Shown piece by piece: positions 3,924 to 53,489 of a stretch of DNA of 64,000 bases. The stretch is taken from positions 1,832,989 to 1,896,988 of the forward strand of contig MTMF02000009.1 of the NCBI GenBank assembly GCA_002011125.2, in the 5' to 3' direction. The notes under the pieces were generated by a model. That model was not told the origin of the DNA. It worked only from the letters and a program-made list of their open reading frames with translations, and did not search any database. A program made the translations under genes and the position numbers. Within the stretch, counting starts at the first letter, position 1, and each line of letters starts with the position of its first letter. The stretch is from Candidatus Hydrothermarchaeum profundi (lineage in GTDB: Archaea; Hydrothermarchaeota; Hydrothermarchaeia; Hydrothermarchaeales; Hydrothermarchaeaceae).

Positions 3924-3961
3924 AAATATTTTACAGGGTTTCTATGCTTACGCTAAGAGTT

Positions 3962-5314
3962 TTACTCTATTTCCCAGGGGAACCGTGGATCAAGGTAGTC
4001 TAGTAGATCCGGGTAAAATTCCTCAACTACCGCCTCTTCATCAACTCTTATATCGGACCCTCTTCTAAGGCTCATAGCTATATATCTGGGTATACCCTTT
4101 TCCTCCAACTTCTCTTTAGTTAAAAAGCTCCTTAAATATTCCACTACATTGCGGTACTTCCTTTTTAGGATAATTTGCCATCTCCCATTACGTATAAAAG
4201 GCTCTGTAAGCTTCTCCCTATATGATGCATATTTATCCAAGAACCTGTCTTCATGCGGCGAGTTTACTGTAGGTCCCATGTGAAACTTCGCTGAAGGGAT
4301 TTCTATTGAAGCCAATTCAAGTATTAAGCATATCTTATCTCTCACAAAAAATTTAGAGCCTAGAATCTTAAAGTCCTTCTCTTCAACACAATTTCGTATT
4401 GTAGCATTAAATTTTCTTAACTGGGGGTAGAGTATATCGTCTATCACTCCAGGATTAGAAAAGACTATAGAAACCAGCTGAGTTCCTCTACCTTTTAATC
4501 TCCTCAGAATTTCATCTTTGTTTGCTATCCTCGTTTTTGGAAAGAAAAATTCTTCCTTAGGGTGCCTTAGGTATTCCTTTGCTGCGTATATGAACTCTGA
4601 AAATCTCTCTAGTGAAAGGGCACTGGACACATTCCTATTGCTATCTACCGGATCTATGAAAATTAGAGGAGAGTCAAACTTTTTTGTCACCTTTTTAATA
4701 TCCGGCTTATCTTTAAGCCACAGTACCTGAGGGGATTTCCATTTCCTAGCTCCTTCTAGGACGCCTCTAAAGGACTTGTATTTTATCACAAGGAGTTCAC
4801 AGAGGTAACCCGAGAACCCTTCGACCTTTGCTTCAGCACCATAACAACCGATGCCCATTAAAAACTGCTTTAATAGCCTAACCTCATCCTCCTTCCCATC
4901 AAGATTTTCTTTTACAAATTTATCGTGGAAAGGAGTCCTATCTACCGCCGATTTAAGTTTTTCTGGGTTTGAGACCTGATAGCATGGCACTAGCTCAACC
5001 TCGAAATCCTCATAACGCCCCCTTATATAAGGATGCTCTGCGAATCTCTTTTCAGGCGAATTAAGAACTTTTTTACCAATAATAGTTACTACCCTCTCCA
5101 GCTCTTTTTTTGAGTATTTTTCGGGGAACATTAAAAAGAAATCCAAGTCCTTTTCATTTTTTAACCAGGTACCTCTAGAGGCAGAGCCTAATAGAGCAAC
5201 CTTTATAGTTGGATCAAATTGTTTAACCTCTCTTTCTAATTTTCTAAGAAGCTTATTGGAAACCCTCTTTAATCGAGCCTCATCTTCTGGCGATGGTTTT
5301 ATTCTTGAAAGCAT
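3962..5314 (-). CDS. cca: archaeal class I CCA-adding enzyme
   Basis: GS..RGTWL...DLD, AEHPY, VPCY, SAVDRTPFH, GFSGYLCELL, DPVD..RNV, HMGP. Confidence 0.96.
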   Translation of the reverse strand: MLSRIKPSPEDEARLKRVSNKLLRKLEREVKQFDPTIKVALLGSASRGTWLKNEKDLDFFLMFPEKYSKKELERVVTIIGKKVLNSPEKRFAEHPYIRGRYEDFEVELVPCYQVSNPEKLKSAVDRTPFHDKFVKENLDGKEDEVRLLKQFLMGIGCYGAEAKVEGFSGYLCELLVIKYKSFRGVLEGARKWKSPQVLWLKDKPDIKKVTKKFDSPLIFIDPVDSNRNVSSALSLERFSEFIYAAKEYLRHPKEEFFFPKTRIANKDEILRRLKGRGTQLVSIVFSNPGVIDDILYPQLRKFNATIRNCVEEKDFKILGSKFFVRDKICLILELASIEIPSAKFHMGPTVNSPHEDRFLDKYASYREKLTEPFIRNGRWQIILKRKYRNVVEYLRSFLTKEKLEEKGIPRYIAMSLRRGSDIRVDEEAVVEEFYPDLLDYLDPRFPWEIE

Positions 5315-45050: not shown

Positions 45051-45698
45051 ATGAGTAAAGAAGAGATTTTGAAGAAAGCAGCTGACGCTATTTTAAAACA
45101 AGACGAGAAGGCTGCTGTTGAAGTTGCAAAGGAAGCGTTAGAAGCGGGTTTAGACCCTGTTGAAGTGATTGAAAAGGGATTTACAGAAGGTATCAGAGAA
45201 GTGGGGGACCTCTTCGATAGGGGTAAGCTTTTTCTCCCGCATGTAATGCTATCAGCAGACGCCATGAAAAAAGCCATCGCAGTTCTTGAGCCTGCTATCG
45301 GCGAAGGTAAGGGAAAAGAAAAAGTGGGGACCGTCGTAATTGGAACCGTTGAAGGAGATATCCATGAAATCGGGAAAGGAATTGTTTCTATCATGCTTCA
45401 AGTGGCTGGATTCGAGGTCCATGACTTGGGTAGGGACGTGCCATTAAAAAAATTCATAGAAGCCGCAAAGGAAACAAACGCCAACATAGTCGGTGCCTCA
45501 GCTTTAATGACGACTTCCTTACCCGGGCAAAAAGAGCTAATAAATCTGTTGAAAGACGCAGGCATCAGAGATAAGGTTAAGATGATGGTAGGGGGTGCAC
45601 CTGCCACTGAGAAATGGGCGCAGAAGATAGGGGCTGACGCCTACGCTGAGAATGCCACAGAGGCTGTGGCAAAGGCAAAAGAATTGGTAACATCATAA
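45051..45698 (+). CDS. mtbC: dimethylamine corrinoid protein
   Basis: GTVEGDIHEIGK B12-binding motif, SALMTT, VGGAP; directly before mtbB. Confidence 0.9.
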   Translation: MSKEEILKKAADAILKQDEKAAVEVAKEALEAGLDPVEVIEKGFTEGIREVGDLFDRGKLFLPHVMLSADAMKKAIAVLEPAIGEGKGKEKVGTVVIGTVEGDIHEIGKGIVSIMLQVAGFEVHDLGRDVPLKKFIEAAKETNANIVGASALMTTSLPGQKELINLLKDAGIRDKVKMMVGGAPATEKWAQKIGADAYAENATEAVAKAKELVTS

Positions 45699-45801: not shown

Positions 45802-47208
45802 ATGGATTACCGTGTTAGAATTGGAGACGGCTCATTAAAATACCTCTCCAAGAAAGAGATAAAGGAAGACATTGAAGACGGAACCAAGGACGCTGCTGAC
45901 CGCGGAGAAATACCAGAACTAACTGATGACGATAAAGAGAGGCTACTTGAAATAGTAACCGAGCCTAATAAGATCGTCAGCGTTTCACCGGGCGAAGAGG
46001 TAGTTATGACAAATGACGTAGGAACACTCACTATCCAAGGTGACCAAGGGAACAGCGGGGTAGGACTACCGCTAGATCGTATACAATGTATACTTACTCA
46101 AGAGCGTGCTTTTGGATCTGACACAATGGAACTAGCCCACACCGATTACAGCTTCAAACCCGTTAAGCCCATCATAGCAATGGAACAACAAGCTCTCGAA
46201 CAGGCAGAACTATTAACAGTGATACCAGTCTTCTATGGAGCAATGCCAAACCTTGGACAGTACTATGTTATAGACGGGCCTTTCCCAAATCCGAATGATC
46301 TATATAGAGATCTGAAAATAAAAGAAGCTCGCGAGAGCCAGGAGGAATGCGCTGAGCATGCCTCGAACAATATGAGTTGGATAGGTCAAAGACTTTGGGA
46401 GGTAGGATGCGAAGGACTAAACTTCGATACTACCGCCGCAGCCGGAGATACCGACTTCTATGCTACTCTGACAGCTACTGAAGAGTTAAAGAAGACTACC
46501 TCTGAAATGTGCATAGAAATGGGCATGGCCGCAGAATACGTGCTCGGGATGCATGGGGAGCTAAAATATGGTGGCGAGCTTCTAGCAGGCCTGTATCCAC
46601 ATCAGCAAGTAAAAGTCGCAGAAAAAGCAGGAGTAGATATATTTGGTCCAGTAGTGAATACCAATACTAGCAAGTCTTTTCCATGGAATATTGCAAGAGC
46701 GCTTACTTTCGTGAAGGAATGCGTAAAACAGTCCAATATACCCATACATGTCAACATGGGAATGGGCGTAGGCGGAATCCCCATGTACGAGACGCCGCCA
46801 GTAGATGCCGTTACAAGGGCTTCTAAGGCAATGGTTCAGATTGCCCACGTCGACGGTATATAGATGGGAGTCGGCGACCCGGTGGGCATGCCTATAAGCC
46901 ATATAATGGCATCTGGCATGGGCGGACTTAGAACAGCGGGAGACCTAGTTGCTAGAATGCAGATGAGCAAAAAAATGAGGATTAATGAAGCCAAGGAGTA
47001 TGTAGCGAAAAAGCTAAACTTAACTCCAAGCGAGCTCTCAGACGAGTATGTCATGAGAGAAGTGAGAGAAGAGCTGGATATAGGGATTATAACACCAGTA
47101 CCGGGAGCAGCGAAAGGGATAGAAGCTAAAGTCAGGATCGCTGAGCTACTGGATATAACTATAAATCCGGTAGAGAGACTAAAAAATAAAGAAAAATTCA
47201 AAAGCTAA
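45802..47208 (+). CDS. mtbB: dimethylamine:corrinoid methyltransferase, pyrrolysine at in-frame TAG 46861..46863 (468 aa)
   Basis: two track ORFs are one frame separated only by TAG; context [23 protein letters not shown] matches the MtbB Pyl site. Confidence 0.95.
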
Positions 47209-47285
47209 GTAACCCTCCGGCCAGTAGCTGGCTATGGGTTACTTTATATCCCCCCAAGCTCTTTGGGGGGATTTATTTTCTCTTT
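47207..47285 (+). terminator. tandem hairpins plus U-tract after mtbB
   Basis: AAGTAACCC/GGGTTACTT hairpin, then ATCCCCCCAA/TTGGGGGGAT hairpin followed by TTATTTTCTCTTT. Confidence 0.7.
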
Positions 47286-47357: not shown

Positions 47358-48254
47358 ATGTTAGAACTCTACGATAAAGTAAGGAAGGAAATTGTAGGCA
47401 GAGATCGAGAGCTTTTAAGAATTTTATCTGCTTTAGAAGCCAAAAAACATTTGTTACTTGAGGGACCGCCAGGTACCTCAAAGTCAACCATCTTGAGGAC
47501 TATAACTAGGCTGTCTAATATCCCTTTTTATCTTTTAGAGGGTAATATCGATTTAACTCCAGCAAAGCTGGTTGGTCACTTTAATCCAGCAGAAGTTATA
47601 TCTGATAATTATAAACCGGAATACTTCAATAAAGGCCCCTTAACAAAAGCCATGGAAGAGGGCGGATTCCTTTATATTGAAGAATTTAATCGAATGCCGG
47701 CAGATGCTACAAATGTGCTATTAGTAGCTATGGAAGAAGGAGAGATAAATATTCCCAGATACGGTAAAGTAGTAGCCAAACCAGGTTTTACCGTGATATG
47801 CGCTCAAAACCCTCTTGACGATGTAGGTACTCTTCGTGTGAGCAGAGCATTTCTAGATAGAGTATGCAGAATAAAGCTTGACTATCAATCCGAAGAAGAA
47901 GAAATTAAAATCGTAGAAGAGAGAACAGGAACAAAAAATAAAGACTTAATTAAATTAGCGGTTAAACTGGCAAGAGAAACTAGAGACCATCCCGATTTGA
48001 AATTAGGAGTCTCTATTAGAGGACCTATTGATATGGTTCAAATAGCCGAAAAGATGCTTAGGCTTGATTTAGATGAAAGGGAAGCTCTTTTAGACTCGAT
48101 GATGCTGGCTTTCAGCGGAAAAGTATGGCTTGATGAGCTTTCTGAAAAATCTCAAGAAGAGGTCCTAGAAGAAATATTTAATCAAATATATACTCCCACG
48201 GGCGCTACTAAAAAAAAAGTAAGCCTGGAACTAATAAGAAAGGAGAAGAACTAA
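47358..48254 (+). CDS. MoxR/CoxD-like AAA+ ATPase (frame-0 product)
   Basis: IVGR, LLEGPPGTSKS, GPL, LYIEEFNR, AQNP, SRAFLDR, S.RG. Confidence 0.9.
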   Translation: MLELYDKVRKEIVGRDRELLRILSALEAKKHLLLEGPPGTSKSTILRTITRLSNIPFYLLEGNIDLTPAKLVGHFNPAEVISDNYKPEYFNKGPLTKAMEEGGFLYIEEFNRMPADATNVLLVAMEEGEINIPRYGKVVAKPGFTVICAQNPLDDVGTLRVSRAFLDRVCRIKLDYQSEEEEIKIVEERTGTKNKDLIKLAVKLARETRDHPDLKLGVSIRGPIDMVQIAEKMLRLDLDEREALLDSMMLAFSGKVWLDELSEKSQEEVLEEIFNQIYTPTGATKKKVSLELIRKEKN

Positions 48255-49141
48255 CGCAACTTGAATCTGATGATAGCGAAGAAAAACCAAGCATCGATAT
48301 AGAAAAAGAATTCGAAAAATCCCCATATCATCTCGCGAAATACTTCAATGCTAATCCTGAAGAACTAGCGAAGGTATTCAGTTCTAAGAAAGCTCTTAAG
48401 ATATATGGCGATATTTCCAGCATGCTTAAACCTGAAACAAAAGAAATAGCAAAGAAGTATATTAGGAGGCTCATTATAAAACTTGGAGTATCGCTGGCCA
48501 ATCCAGGATATCAGCGAGATAAGATTGTTCCCTTGAATGATATAACACTATCAGACGATATCGAGATAGATAGAACAATCGAGAAAATTATACAGGCCCC
48601 GGAACTTCCCTTAGAGGATAACATCACCGTTTTAGGCAGAAAGAAGAAGAAACAAGATATCGTGCTAATGTTAGATAGGAGCTTTTCTATGAAGGGGATC
48701 AAAACCGTCTTGTCAGCTATAACTGCCTCTGCGATTTCTTTACATTTTAAGGGGAATGTATCTGTCCTATTTTTTAACGATAAATCAAAATTCATTAAAA
48801 AAAGAAACCAAAAGATGGTTTTAGATTCTATAGTAGATAAGATTCTCGATTTAGATGTAGAAGGAGGAACAAATATAAGGAAAGCCCTTGAAATGGGCCT
48901 ACAAGAAATATCATCCTCAGACAAAAAAAGAGGACTACTTCTTACAGATGGTAACTGGACGGTAGGAGCTAATCCCTTAAGTGTGGCACAGAAGTATGAT
49001 AAGCTAGACGTAATCTGCTTCCCACCAGCTAATAGTGAGAAATCCAAGCTTTTAGCATTAAAAGGAAACGGAACCCTAGAATATGTTGAAAGGGAAGAGG
49101 ATATTTTCAGAGCAATATTAAGCTGCCTACGGCTAAACTAG
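48218..49141 (+). CDS. vWA domain, probably translated as an AAA-vWA fusion through a -1 shift at A9 (48210..48218)
   Basis: MIDAS DRSFS, GGTN, LLTDG; frame open from the A9 run to the track start at 48422. Confidence 0.8.
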   Translation, partial: SKPGTNKKGEELTQLESDDSEEKPSIDIEKEFEKSPYHLAKYFNANPEELAKVFSSKKALKIYGDISSMLKPETKEIAKKYIRRLIIKLGVSLANPGYQRDKIVPLNDITLSDDIEIDRTIEKIIQAPELPLEDNITVLGRKKKKQDIVLMLDRSFSMKGIKTVLSAITASAISLHFKGNVSVLFFNDKSKFIKKRNQKMVLDSIVDKILDLDVEGGTNIRKALEMGLQEISSSDKKRGLLLTDGNWTVGANPLSVAQKYDKLDVICFPPANSEKSKLLALKGNGTLEYVEREEDIFRAILSCLRLN

Positions 49142-49722
49142 TTTTTCATATTATATCCGATGAGCAGAGTACCGTCCTTGCTTTTCTCGCAACCCAGTAA
49201 ACGCTTCAAGTATTCATCAGAAGGTGTACAAGGGCTACCTGATACTATATCTTCAAGCTCTTCAAATTCCTGGAGCTCTGGAAAAGGAAGAGGCGGCATA
49301 AGAAAATAAGGCTTTCCTTTTGGAAGTTTATTCTTATACAGTACAAAGTCAGGACCCATAAAAATAACATCTTTCCTTTTTTTCATTTCTTCCAGCTTTT
49401 TGGATCCAACCCATTCTCCAAGAATCTCCCCATCTTCGTCAACCATTACCACCCACGGGCGGGAGGGTTCCCTAAATGTTTTATCAAATAATATCACCCA
49501 TGTCTCGTCCCTTGATAAAGCCTCGAAAGTACCCTCGTTTAAAAAGTCCATCATGCCTTGTACCGCCCCTCTCTCCTGTGCTTTCTTCTCAAGCCTCAAA
49601 ATCTCCTCTTTTTCATCCTGGGTAAGAAGTCTTACATCCAGTACTCCTTTAAGGTTCCTAAGCCTAAACATTATCCTTTCGTGGAGGTCTTTTGTTACTC
49701 CACTAGTACTAGGCCGTTCCAT
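49138..49722 (-). CDS. uncharacterised protein in the methylamine locus
   Basis: 194-aa ORF coupled to the DUF2284 gene; N.G..EAL.R, P..FPEL, SGSP motifs. Confidence 0.7.
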   Translation of the reverse strand: MERPSTSGVTKDLHERIMFRLRNLKGVLDVRLLTQDEKEEILRLEKKAQERGAVQGMMDFLNEGTFEALSRDETWVILFDKTFREPSRPWVVMVDEDGEILGEWVGSKKLEEMKKRKDVIFMGPDFVLYKNKLPKGKPYFLMPPLPFPELQEFEELEDIVSGSPCTPSDEYLKRLLGCEKSKDGTLLIGYNMKN

Positions 49723-50291
49723 CTTACATTCTCCTGCGAAGATAATCCTAATGGCATGCCTATGTTTTTACAGGTCCTATAAACATCTATCCCTACACCT
49801 TCTAACGAGGGTCTGGCCTTAAAAGGTTGATGACATAACTCCCCTTTTTTAGGGTCAGCGCACTCCTCGCAAAGCTTACAATTACCGCCAATCAGTCCCG
49901 TAGCAAGATAGTAGCCCAGCTTAAAAGCTTCTCTTTCGACTGCATTAACTATCTCATGCAACTTAAGCTCATACTTCTCATAAACCTCTTTCTCAAGTTT
50001 ATCCACAAGATTTTTAGAAATAGGCTCATTTGACTTATCTAAAGAATCAACGTTCTCCATCTCAAGCTGAATGAATATTGCCTTTTTATACTTTGATAAA
50101 ATCTTCCTAAATTCATCAAATGGTATGGAATTAGGAGGACAGAAATAATATCTATTATATCCATCGCATGGGGGTACCTGACACTTTAATAAAACCCGCC
50201 TATCCATTACTATCGATCCCACATCAATAATCTTCGCCCTAGTAGCCCCTTCCCTTAGACTAACCTCTACGAGCTTCTCAAGCTTATTCAT
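49695..50291 (-). CDS. DUF2284-like metal-binding protein
   Basis: D.RV.LKC..P.C..Y...CPP, EREAF..GYY.A, G.C.LC..C, RPS.E.VGIDV. Confidence 0.82.
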   Translation of the reverse strand: MNKLEKLVEVSLREGATRAKIIDVGSIVMDRRVLLKCQVPPCDGYNRYYFCPPNSIPFDEFRKILSKYKKAIFIQLEMENVDSLDKSNEPISKNLVDKLEKEVYEKYELKLHEIVNAVEREAFKLGYYLATGLIGGNCKLCEECADPKKGELCHQPFKARPSLEGVGIDVYRTCKNIGMPLGLSSQENVRWNGLVLVE

Positions 50292-50410
50292 TGAATCCCA
50301 CCTAAATATTATTTTCCGAGTCCTACTACTCAGATAAACATTAACAAGCCTAAAAAAATTTTCTAGAAACAATTTTATTTTTCGAAGGCAATATTCGATG
50401 CTGATAGTTT

Positions 50411-52042
50411 ATGAAGAGGTACGGGATTGCTTTGGATATGGGCACTAGCGGTTTCCGCGCCCAAGCGATAGATTTGGATGAGGGGGAAATAATCTCAACA
50501 TCAATTACTCTGCGACATCCTATACCCGGAGCTAACGTTATGGACCATGTGACTTTCGCAATAGACGTTGGAACTGATATAACCCACGACCTAATAGTAA
50601 TGACAGTAAACAAGCTAATAACAACCCTAAAAATTGACCCGACAAGAGTAGAAAGACTAGCGGTATGTGGTAATCCCTTTCAGCTTTCACTTTTCCAAAA
50701 ACTTGAGATACGAGACCTAGCATACGCGGGGGAATCTAAATTAAAGGCTTTAGGAGTAAAACCGCCTAAAAGAGATGCGACCATAATGGATGCCGAAACT
50801 ATTGGACTCAATATAAACCCTGAGGCAAATGTGCTTATACCCCCAGCGGTAAAACATGAAATAGGAGCAGATGCCTTAGCAATGATGCTAAAAACAGATT
50901 TCCTCGAAAATTCGCCAAGTATAGTCACAGACTACGGAACTAATGCAGAAATGGCGCTAAATGTAGATGGCCAGATATATTCAGGATCTGCTGCCGCAGG
51001 TCCTGCCCTAGAGGGACAACAAATTAAGGAGGGCATGCTAGCTGCTCCAGGTGCTATATCTGATGTAGATCCTGAAGACTCAAAATGGCGTTGCTCCGTT
51101 TTAAGTAAAGAGCTAATGGCTGAAGAGGGAGACCTAATAGATCCCCGCACTGGAGAAATATTTAAAAAAGGGGTCATGCACGGCAAAGTAAAAGGAATAA
51201 CCGGTACTGGCGTTATAGCTGCTATCGCTAGAGGACTACAAGAAGGGTTGGTTGTACCACCAAAGATTAAGACTCCAGACAATAAGGTCCACCTTCAAGA
51301 TGGTATTACGATAACTGAGGATGACATAGTCGAGGCTGGAAAAGCTATAGGAGCTATTAGAGCAGGCCATATGACGTTGATAAATGAAGCTGGAATAAGT
51401 ATGGAGGAAGTTGAAACAGCCTATATGGCTGGCGCCTTAGGAACGTATGTAGATGCAATTAAAGCTCAGAAAGTAGGCCTAGTGCCATCTACGTGCAAAA
51501 ACCTAGTGCAAGTCGGAAACACCTCTCTTTCACTAGCGAGGGATCTGATTTTTGAACCTGAAAAGCTTGAAGAACTCCAAGATTACGCAAACAAGTTAAG
51601 GGCAAAACATGTTATGTTCGCGATATCAAATACCTTCAGAAACATCTTCGTTATAGAGCTTTCTCTTTGGACTGAAGGAATGCCCTTCAGCATGTATAAT
51701 GACATGTTAAAGATGTATAAATTACCGCCAATACCTATGAAGAATGTCAATGCAAAAGTGAATAAAATTGTTCAGAGAGATATTCCAATACTGGGTAAAT
51801 ATGGAATCACCGTTGTTGAAGATGTAGGTATAATTCTTTCAACTAGAGTATCAGAGTGCATTTACTGTAAAAAATGTATTAGAGAATGTCCTGAGGAGGC
51901 AATAGAGATAATAGAAAAAGATGGTAAGCGAATAGCATTAATAAGATCTGATAAGTGCAATGGAACAGCGTGTCGAAGGTGCGAGATAATTTGTCCTAAA
52001 AATACCCTTAAGCTAAGAGAACTAAAGATAAATACAACCTAA
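50411..52042 (+). CDS. ramA: methylamine methyltransferase corrinoid reductive activase
   Basis: DMGTSG.R, RHP.PGANVMDH, HEIGADALA, DYGTNAEM, GSAAAGPA.EGQ, C-terminal 2x[4Fe-4S]. Confidence 0.94.
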   Translation: MKRYGIALDMGTSGFRAQAIDLDEGEIISTSITLRHPIPGANVMDHVTFAIDVGTDITHDLIVMTVNKLITTLKIDPTRVERLAVCGNPFQLSLFQKLEIRDLAYAGESKLKALGVKPPKRDATIMDAETIGLNINPEANVLIPPAVKHEIGADALAMMLKTDFLENSPSIVTDYGTNAEMALNVDGQIYSGSAAAGPALEGQQIKEGMLAAPGAISDVDPEDSKWRCSVLSKELMAEEGDLIDPRTGEIFKKGVMHGKVKGITGTGVIAAIARGLQEGLVVPPKIKTPDNKVHLQDGITITEDDIVEAGKAIGAIRAGHMTLINEAGISMEEVETAYMAGALGTYVDAIKAQKVGLVPSTCKNLVQVGNTSLSLARDLIFEPEKLEELQDYANKLRAKHVMFAISNTFRNIFVIELSLWTEGMPFSMYNDMLKMYKLPPIPMKNVNAKVNKIVQRDIPILGKYGITVVEDVGIILSTRVSECIYCKKCIRECPEEAIEIIEKDGKRIALIRSDKCNGTACRRCEIICPKNTLKLRELKINTT

Positions 52043-52109: not shown

Positions 52110-53489
52110 CTACTTGATGTCAACGCCGAGTTCCCGTAGAGTGTTCACGGCCTTATCATACACCTGCAGGTGCTCCTCAGTAGGAACAACCTTAACCACG
52201 TCATAACACTCCTGGAACCTCTTACCCTTAGGCGCCGTCTTATAGTCACTCTCGTACTTCTTAATCAAATTATCCAAGATCACGTTAACCTCACTGATAT
52301 CCATGCCAGCCACAGCAATAGCCGCCTCACCCATAATCCGGGCCTCCATACCAGTCGTATAATCCAACGCAACGCCCTTAGCACTAGCACTACCACTAAC
52401 AAGCTCACGGCCACTAGCAGTGTCAGTAATAGCCTGAGCAGCCGTCTCCAACAAACACATCTCAGTACACGGACCCGCCAACGGATAATACTGGTTCGAA
52501 GTCAACAAATGAGTATTCTCATCAATAGCCCTAGCCGTATGCCCAGCCACCTGCAGGGTCTCACGCGCAGTAGTGATACCCCACCTGATATGGATAGGCC
52601 CATCCAAGTGATAACTCCCATTCAACAAGGTGAAGCTCGTCAAATGAGTAGCCACGTTACAGATCGAGGTCTCCTCGACCCCGCCAGCATAGCCACCAAA
52701 GATAGGCATCTGCTCCACCATAATAATATCACCATTCTGAACCCAACCAGCAATCATATGCAGGCCACCATTATCAATCTTAAGCTCATTCAACTGACTG
52801 ATCTCATGGCTATCACAAGGCCTCAAGCCACCCAGGAGATCCCCGGCAAGACGCCCCGCACTCGTCAAGGGCGTCTCTGGGCCCTAAACCGCCATATAGG
52901 GTCTCCCAGCCTTACGACAAGCCTCACGGATATAATACAACTCAAACAGAGTAGCCTTAATCTCCCAAGGACTACCGCTAGTAGCCTCATTACCCTCAAT
53001 AGTAGCCAACACACCATTCACAATAGTATCCACCGTAGGCTCCTGAGCATAACTCTGAAACATCGGGATAAAAATATCCTCACTAACAGGAGCACCCGTA
53101 GGACCGCCCTGAATAACAGGCTTAAAACCAGGATTACCACGACGCTGCGCCATATCCACTGCGTCCTGATACTCGCCCAACACGAGCTTCCTAGGCGCCT
53201 TCTTAATAGACTCAAGAACCTCGTCCTCAGAGACCCTGATAACCCTTCCGGTGTCAATATTATAGATCCCAGTCTCCACCAACATCTCCAAGCCGGCCTG
53301 GAACAAGTTATCAATCAGCTCACTGTCCGTAGGAATAATCTCACCCGAAAACTTGATGTTATACTTCTCCTTCATCTTAGCAGCATTCTGCGGGATAATC
53401 TTATAATCCCAGTCACGCTCACTAACCTTCTCCCCACTAATCGACCTATTATAGGTCTCATACACATCTAAAGGCCTACCAACCGCCAA
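52110..53489 (-). CDS. mtmB: monomethylamine:corrinoid methyltransferase, pyrrolysine at in-frame TAG 52884..52886 (codon 202; 459 aa)
   Basis: QGGPTG, AGRP.M.V-O-GPET, DSHE.SQL.ELK, HLDGP.HIRWG, GK.FQECYD. Confidence 0.95.
52849..52876 (-). promoter_or_regulatory. PYLIS-like hairpin 7 nt downstream of the mtmB amber codon
   Basis: AGACGCCC-12 nt-GGGCGTCT perfect 8-bp stem, extendable by G-U pairs. Confidence 0.55.

Follow-up and report, generated by a model that had tools for sequence, protein, structure and literature searches.

Probable recoding at the ATPase-vWA locus

Does the DNA that follows the dimethylamine methyltransferase gene mtbB in Candidatus Hydrothermarchaeum profundi hold two adjacent genes, or one gene that is recoded to give two proteins? 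The window analyzed here is a 64,000-nucleotide stretch of contig MTMF02000009.1, and the locus in question lies at its positions 47358-49141. It begins with an open reading frame (ORF) for a MoxR-like AAA+ ATPase and continues, in the -1 frame, into a vWA domain with a MIDAS site. The two frames meet at a run of nine A's. An original prediction, made from the letters of the window, had proposed that a slip at this run gives an ATPase-vWA fusion alongside the ATPase. The comparative evidence strongly backs this proposal, and we consider it highly probable that 47358-49141 is a single recoded gene yielding two proteins. The features of the locus are as follows.

47358..48254, plus strand: zero-frame ORF (from the ORF list and Pfam), MoxR-like AAA+ ATPase, short product of 298 residues
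48209..48211, plus strand: TAA of the -1 frame, which overlaps the start of the run and closes the -1 frame upstream
48210..48218, plus strand: A9 slippery run, three AAA lysine codons (K285-K287), predicted site of a -1 shift or of one added A in the RNA
48218..49141, plus strand: continuation in the -1 frame, with a charged linker of about 22 residues, a helical region and a vWA domain with MIDAS
48422..48424, plus strand: first ATG of the -1 frame, a conserved internal Met (GMLK position) and an unlikely start
48674..48688, plus strand: MIDAS DxSxS motif of the vWA domain, D155/S157/S159 of the -1 translation

At the junction the ATPase ORF reads ACT AAA AAA AAA GTA, followed by 11 more sense codons and a TAA at 48252-48254. 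The heptamer A_AAA_AAA is in phase at 48212-48218. The -1 frame stays open from the run to its stop at 49139-49141, and its earliest ATG, GTG or TTG is the ATG at 48422. A shift at the run joins 47358-48218 to 48218-49141, for a predicted protein of 287 + 307 = 594 residues; one A fewer in the transcript would instead lead to a TAA at 48220-48222, directly after the run. The position of the run, the ATPase stop 12 codons on, the TAA at 48209 with the open -1 frame running through the charged linker into the vWA domain, and the lengths of the 298-residue ATPase and the fusion of about 594 residues had all been given in the original prediction, and each was borne out.

Straight reading of the gene would thus give the 298-residue ATPase, and either an extra A inserted by RNA polymerase or a ribosome moving back by one nucleotide would give a protein of about 594 residues, composed of ATPase, linker, helical region and vWA/MIDAS domain. 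Both routes would produce an identical long protein, and both may contribute.

Conservation of the A run and the -1 offset

The junction DNA was compared across loci from species genomes and from metagenomes. The species-genome set comprised 48 loci, the window and an archaeal relative (G007), with both parts present at 47 loci; these were found with an alignment of the ATPase, a search with a single vWA protein having matched no relative. A script classed the 47 loci as 32 at -1, 12 in frame and 3 at +1. Inspection by eye revealed that an A10 had been overlooked at L048, that L053 is at -1 with A9 at the junction, and that L043 is at -1 with an interrupted run, AAAAGAAAA. In the final tally, 32 of the 47 loci are at -1 with an unbroken run of A8-A13, 1 has the interrupted run, 2 are at +1 (L020, A11; L036, A9) and 12 are in frame. 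The 32 include the window, the G007 locus (L002), L048 and L053 as assigned by eye, and L049, which is broken in several places and was counted with the unbroken runs.

Both parts were present at 68 of 80 metagenome loci. At 34 of these the vWA frame lies at -1 with A9-A14, 3 are at +1, and 31 are in frame, 12 of them with a run of at least 8. One locus scripted as in frame (L098) resembles a -1 locus in the printed frames. Over both sets, 66 loci are at -1 and 5 at +1, and the run at -1 loci is never shorter than 8 A's and is mostly 9 to 11.

The surveyed loci are 42% to 62% identical to the window ATPase. The most divergent end includes the archaeal orthologue L002, which is 42% identical and has an A13, the same -1 offset and a TAA that likewise overlaps the run. 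Comparison of relatives had been proposed with the original prediction, and it shows both the run and the offset to be kept in many of them; the contrary pattern, in which orthologues are always in-frame fusions or separate genes lacking a run, is not what we found, since most species-genome loci are at -1 with a run. An in-phase slippery run with the same offset in divergent orthologues, one test for recoding, was therefore present.

Another test concerned coding in the new frame and the nucleotides of the run. From its upstream stop through to where the run ends, the vWA frame is free of ATG, GTG and TTG codons at all 30 scripted -1 loci, and at many -1 loci homology begins well ahead of the first later start. 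The motif KKK-x-DRYVGDxF is conserved after the run in the -1 frame. In GC-rich Actinomycetota loci, AAG makes up 72-96% of the other lysine codons of the gene, yet AAA AAA AAA is kept at the junction (AAA versus AAG elsewhere in the gene: 1 versus 22 in L037, 3 versus 23 in L042 and 2 versus 14 in L053). Retention of the AAA run against this bias indicates that selection acts on the nucleotides. Conserved coding without a start of its own, combined with nucleotides kept against codon bias, was thus also found. As in the window, a TAA of the -1 frame overlaps the start of the run in 12 of the 30 loci. We also noted a T directly 5' of the run in 21 of the 30.

Other arrangements are found among the homologues. 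An A8-A11 run is retained in 17 in-frame fusions, several of which are near-duplicates. In 13 of the 17 a stop in the -1 frame follows the run by no more than two codons, and here a slip would yield the short form, a reverse polarity like that of dnaX. At L014, L071 and L113 a separate ATPase-only gene precedes a fusion that has no run of at least 8 (none in L014 and L113, A7 in L071). Judging from these sequences, the two-product logic recurs in other forms, through reverse polarity or separate genes.

Coding ahead of the first start codon

If the two parts were independent genes, vWA synthesis would begin on its own at ATG 48422 or depend on re-initiation or coupling, and the A run would be a mere lysine tract. 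An ATG is indeed present at 48422, and downstream initiation alongside frameshifting is reported for some chlD constructs in the portions of PMC3711429 consulted. Searches returned 216 longer homologues. The 120 listed, with 51-63% identity to the ATPase, are nearly all 585-680 residues long and have Pfam domains of both the AAA and the vWA type; the in-frame AAA-vWA fusion is the common form of the family. Residues 22-307 of the -1 translation are colinear with residues 327-611 of one such 611-residue fusion (P0008; 36% identity, E = 5e-60), and the alignment starts about 49 residues ahead of Met 48422, the first start codon of the -1 frame.

An AlphaFold model of the -1 part had a mean predicted local distance difference test score (pLDDT) of 85.2. 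Residues 1-22 were disordered and the helices at 30-96 were confident, including those at 30-71, upstream of Met 48422 (pLDDT 86-97). In an alignment of 36 vWA sequences, Met 48422 falls on a conserved internal Met. An independent vWA gene would thus leave about 49 conserved, confidently modelled residues with no start codon before them; it would also have to account for the 30 -1 loci without a start ahead of the run end and for AAA codons kept against codon bias. We consider two independent genes very unlikely.

The short form has counterparts as well. Among 119 homologues of near ATPase length, 90 end in KKK or KKKK within the last 12 residues, and in 64 of those 90 exactly 4 residues follow the lysine run. 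The closest relative (P0122; 80% identity, 295 residues) also has KKK and a tail; it lies outside the DNA surveyed, in which the best locus is 62% identical to the window ATPase.

One locus differs from all of these. In the isolate Desulfospira joergensenii DSM 10085 (L028:3001-4824) both parts are in the same frame, with a single TGA at about 3928-3930 between them and no A run. Coding is conserved beyond the TGA, and an ATG-started ORF begins only at 4024. Stop-codon readthrough may serve here as an alternative to slippage, or the gene may be split; the ORF from Met 4024 covers the vWA part, as independent genes would predict.

Reliability of the A9 run

The length of the run was checked in public sequencing runs, assembled into contigs. 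Over the whole stretch, the probable source sample (X1) matches the window exactly. In an independent study (X2), one contig of depth 50 agrees with 47358-48401 throughout, with neither a difference nor a gap. The A9 is thus identical in two assemblies from different studies, at depths of 88 and 50. A strain that is about 95% similar (X3) has a contig across 47621-48225 with 32 substitutions and one gap at 48144, outside the run, which is retained in this strain. Contig cover in X2, X3 and X4 is partial, and the uncovered parts are uninformative.

Two side observations came from these contigs. The extra A at 48144 in X3 (depth 4.6) would break the ATPase frame and may be an assembly error. The same may be true of X4, a 215-nucleotide contig of depth 3.9, in which an extra A behind 48238 would fuse both frames.

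These data bear on the notion that the offset reflects phase variation in the DNA, a decaying gene or an assembly error, with the fusion simply on or off. Run length does vary among close relatives (A11 versus A12, A9 versus A10 and A13 versus A14), the extra A of the X4 contig would bring both parts into one frame, and some source assemblies look error-prone (L049 and L053). The same -1 state, however, is found in the 32 species-genome and 34 metagenome loci, which span several phyla. Under random switching, -1 would be expected to be no commoner than the +1 and in-frame states. The A9 is the same in both studies' assemblies, and both halves of the window gene retain every invariant residue of their families. 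Switching, decay or error at the DNA level is in our estimate a very poor candidate.

Weighing transcriptional and ribosomal slippage

In chlD genes of class I (Mg/Co) chelatases, a -1 shift at poly-A yields both subunits (Antonov et al. 2013, PMC3711429; Kuznetsov et al. 2022, PMC9227772), and in the parts of the former consulted, chlD reporters in Escherichia coli gave frameshifting of 10% with A7, 40% with A9 and 63% with A11. The original prediction allowed either a ribosomal slip, its first option, or transcriptional addition of an A. Either fits the window, and the transcriptional route is at least as likely, given the lack of a downstream structure and runs of 8 to 14.

In a purely ribosomal mechanism, tRNA-Lys would slip by -1 in tandem on A_AAA_AAA as the message is translated, with the same two products. 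The heptamer is in phase at 48212-48218. As far as the available text of a review goes (PMC5009743), chlD poly-A sites are taken as an A_AAA_AAR shift site with conserved frameshifting, and the reporter values of 10-63% (PMC3711429) were likewise obtained as frameshifting. The excess of -1 over +1 loci also fits such a mechanism. Against it, no stimulatory RNA structure, stem-loop or pseudoknot, was detected in the 92 nucleotides after the run (z-scores of 0.40 in the window and 0.15 in L002), and no -1 locus has the bare heptamer, the runs being 8 to 14 long. The growth of reporter efficiency with run length (PMC3711429, as far as consulted) is also predicted by RNA-polymerase slippage. The +1 loci L020 and L036 are one A apart from close -1 relatives.

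RNA-polymerase slippage is favored because no downstream structure was found, every -1 run has at least 8 A's, a single A can separate close relatives of different offset, and chlD efficiency rises with run length. From these sequence features we give it an even chance, and we regard a purely ribosomal shift as possible and rather unlikely.

Several points weigh against one recoded gene with two products. The A9 is the sole A9/T9 in the window (1 match versus 4.4 expected from shuffles), and the genome has 63 A/T runs of at least 9, versus about 69 expected from base composition; some genomic A9 runs sit in long open frames, so that A9 is tolerated elsewhere. Because such runs are not rare, the case for recoding rests on the position and conservation of this one: its place at the domain junction and its retention there in dozens of divergent loci go beyond chance, and the run alone does not. 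Five loci are at +1, the run of L043 is interrupted, and many in-frame loci have no run at all. The species-genome and metagenome loci overlap (identical rows) and are phylogenetically related, so that locus counts do not equal independent events. The check used contigs, and a systematic error in calling the homopolymer, or a minor variant of another length, may have escaped it. Finally, it is from the anatomy, conservation and synteny of the locus that we infer the two products, their ratio, their assembly and their client.

A predicted MoxR-type motor with a vWA arm

Pfam analysis of the ATPase returned AAA_5 (75.2 bits; cut-off, 22) and AAA_3 (57.5 bits; cut-off, 27), along with a bpMoxR match. 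The Walker A motif, GPPGTSKS, occupies residues 36-43. G36, G39, K42 and E109 are invariant among 28 ATPase homologues, and the Walker A and B motifs are intact. The ATPase thus shows the AAA_5/AAA_3 scores and motifs of the MoxR class. The closest solved sequences are midasin (1.1e-28), MoxR 2r44 (4.4e-17), NorQ (6.4e-12) and CbbQ (3.9e-09).

The -1 frame matched VWA_CoxE (40.6 bits; cut-off, 26.4) and VWA (30.3 bits; cut-off, 23.8). The MIDAS residues D155, S157, S159, T220 and D246 are invariant in the 36-sequence alignment. A sequence search of the PDB with the vWA part gave zero matches at E <= 0.1, and a fold search gave 332 PDB matches at E <= 0.001. Those listed are all vWA folds and include NorD in NorQD complexes (9qhe_G, 9.3e-08) and the Rea1 MIDAS domain. 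The Pfam scores, the DxSxS...T...D pattern and the Rossmann-like vWA fold all identify a vWA/MIDAS domain, and the order AAA+, charged linker and vWA/MIDAS, with the poly-A -1 site after the AAA+ part, is present in full.

The protein scored far below the named chelatase families: 26 bits for ChlD/BchD (TIGR02031; cut-off, 499.55) and 29.2 bits for the cobaltochelatase/CobT type (TIGR02442; cut-off, 779.45). The in-frame homologue P0008 is likewise under the ChlD and cobaltochelatase cut-offs. No match to the CobN/ChlH partner (PF02514) was found in the source genome (G000), which is 97.65% complete; a control search with PF02514 matched in 5 of 14 control genomes. The protein is therefore not a ChlD/CobT-type subunit, as judged by these scores and a genome without CobN. 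Assignment to GvpN, the gas vesicle ATPase, was also rejected (82.5 bits; TIGR02640 cut-off, 266.8), and none of the named NCBIfam families reached its cut-off. These comparisons point to a separate AAA_5/vWA family, a MoxR-type motor with a vWA arm and chlD-like gene logic that is a member of neither named family.

An AAA_5 motor paired with a vWA/MIDAS arm is also found in NorQ/NorD, CbbQ/CbbO and midasin with its MIDAS domain. These systems are remodelling or cofactor-insertion helpers, each with one client enzyme. Unlike the window parts, which are linked by a recoding site, theirs are separate genes or one giant polypeptide.

Comparison with chlD and dnaX

As far as the cited chlD papers were available, the window gene resembles frameshifted chlD in three respects. 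One gene would give a short AAA+ subunit and a long AAA+-linker-vWA subunit; the -1 shift lies at a poly-A run ending the AAA+ part; and the arrangement occurs in bacteria and archaea, with in-frame fusions in other species. It differs from chlD in that the ATPase is of the AAA_5/AAA_3 MoxR type, another family; in that its context is mtbC-mtbB-DUF2284-RamA rather than tetrapyrrole synthesis, with no CobN/ChlH found in the genome; and in that the predicted long form and the short form have one and the same AAA+ domain. The original prediction had invoked chlD as its precedent. The precedent is real and the gene logic analogous, whereas the window protein itself is no chlD-type chelatase subunit.

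For dnaX tau/gamma, A9 transcriptional slippage in Thermus is described in the parts of PMC3711429 consulted. As in dnaX, poly-A would set the ratio of short and long AAA+ proteins that have a common N terminus and act in one complex, and the 13 in-frame run-bearing members described above have the dnaX polarity, in which a shift leads to the short form. In the window the polarity is reversed, with the shift leading to the long form, and the protein family and function are unrelated to those of DnaX.

Poly-A recoding to I-like and D-like subunits is already published for chlD, as stated in the consulted parts of PMC3711429, PMC9227772 and PMC5009743, and one literature search found only chlD and cobalt chelatase work. 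The original prediction had presented the recoded chaperone as one not known to be described; in agreement with this, we found no paper on the AAA_5/vWA family, its recoding or its link to mtbB, although the 146 candidate clusters in the PMC3711429 supplement lay outside the search and might include the family under another name. The locus would thus represent a second, unrelated AAA+/vWA family beside chlD, the one known case in which a poly-A slip gives a motor and a motor plus arm. Two unrelated cases suggest a general way to set the subunit ratio in AAA+/vWA rings. The present survey adds a run-length spectrum, a codon-bias test, reverse-polarity forms and separate-gene forms. Because the site is kept in at least two lineages of archaea as well as in several phyla of bacteria, it offers a natural test bed for transcriptional versus ribosomal slippage that includes archaea, where recoding is poorly documented. 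Annotation pipelines now split the gene in two.

Methylamine neighborhood and putative function

In the window, the order of genes is mtbC, mtbB, a hairpin, the recoded gene, DUF2284 (minus strand), RamA, a second corrinoid protein and an ammonium transporter. Cobalt transport genes of the cbiMQO type (CbiM, ABC ATPase and CbiQ) lie upstream of the recoded gene. The neighboring features are as follows.

45051..45698, plus strand: mtbC-like corrinoid protein (Pfam B12-binding and B12-binding_2)
45802..47208, plus strand: mtbB, dimethylamine methyltransferase, with an in-frame TAG (pyrrolysine) at 46861-46863; Dimeth_Pyl, 769 bits with the TAG read through
47248-47272: terminator-like hairpin of 11 pairs with a T-rich tail, between mtbB and the ATPase gene
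49138-49722, minus strand: ORF of 194 residues, no Pfam match
49695..50372, minus strand: DUF2284 Cys-rich protein, likely start at ATG 50291
50411..52042, plus strand: RamA-type corrinoid activation protein, with RACo domains and a 2x[4Fe-4S] domain
52170-53471, plus strand: ORF of 433 residues, no Pfam match; a 31%-identical homologue is present in a Peptococcaceae locus (L030, 944-2140)

A TATA-like AT-rich sequence was seen upstream of ATG 47358. The recoded gene, which follows the hairpin behind mtbB, may be transcribed from a promoter of its own, with only a very short leader.

Among the 48 loci from species genomes, 20 encode MtbB in their 3-kb flanks. An MtbC-like protein occurs there at 16 loci, DUF2284 also at 16 (usually directly upstream of the ATPase) and RamA at 5. 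Other clusters in the flanks were an MTTB-family methyltransferase (9 loci), radical-SAM proteins (8 loci) and rubrerythrin-like proteins (7 loci). These counts are lower bounds because many loci are cut by contig ends. Synteny with mtbC-mtbB-DUF2284-RamA thus extends across bacteria and is found in the archaeon of the window. From this synteny alone, we infer that the gene product is a helper of the corrinoid-dependent dimethylamine methyltransferase system. The original prediction had dedicated it to corrinoid or pyrrolysine methyltransferases; that link gains conserved synteny with mtbC-mtbB-DUF2284, and the function itself stays conjectural.

By analogy with ChlI/ChlD, NorQ/NorD and CbbQ/CbbO, both forms would be subunits of a joint AAA+ ring with one or a few vWA arms. 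Such a ring machine would act on the MtbB/MtbC/DUF2284 system, which it might load, remodel or reactivate, and control of subunit stoichiometry by slippage is plausible. More tentatively, and at somewhat less than even probability, the recoded AAA+/vWA protein and a DUF2284 protein containing Cys or Sec would form an undescribed ATP-driven activase or cofactor-loading machine needed by the pyrrolysine-dependent dimethylamine methyltransferase system; the module mtbC-mtbB-DUF2284-AAA/vWA would have moved between bacteria and archaea, and the rate of poly-A slippage would set the number of vWA arms per AAA+ ring.

Two findings count against this assignment of function. The source genome has a second mtbB copy (C9:239781-241148; 565 bits, one TAG), and a search of the whole genome gave no further close relative of the ATPase; the only other ATPase match is a distant MoxR, 35% identical and about 58 kb away. 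The orthologue in G007 adjoins a corrinoid protein, and a search of the G007 genome for mtbB was negative. Because of these two genomes, the client is put forward as a conjecture. A three-chain complex prediction with DUF2284, MtbC and the vWA domain as partner scored 0.00 (mark, 0.32) and counts neither way.

In the DUF2284 gene of one locus (L017:2375-2920), an in-frame TGA takes the place of a Cys codon. The Cys belongs to a CxxC-like motif and is invariant in the window and other loci. The gene thus resembles one for a selenocysteine variant, and a TGA at an invariant Cys is a hint of a redox-active site in DUF2284. The AAA/vWA protein and DUF2284 would be an unstudied helper set travelling with the dimethylamine methyltransferase, and this set could matter for the reconstitution or expression of MtbB/MtbC and for methylamine use outside methanogens.

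Distribution of the module

The window carries genes for Orc1/Cdc6 and archaeosine TGT, which mark it as archaeal. The source genome has two mtbB genes, each with an in-frame TAG, and no match to McrA was found in it (97.65% complete, as above); together these indicate a pyrrolysine-using archaeon that is a non-methanogen by the McrA test. Of 38 genomes from the phylum, just 2 yielded the recoded gene, and mtbB was found in 0 of 40 relatives.

A quick tree was built from 114 of 134 loci, leaving out the distant paralogues L003-L006, loci without a vWA part and ATPase matches of fewer than 240 residues. The tree is unrooted (midpoint only), and no direction of transfer is claimed for that reason. 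The window ATPase falls among bacterial sequences, apart from the other archaeal ones. This agrees with movement of the module between domains, and it was probably acquired by transfer.

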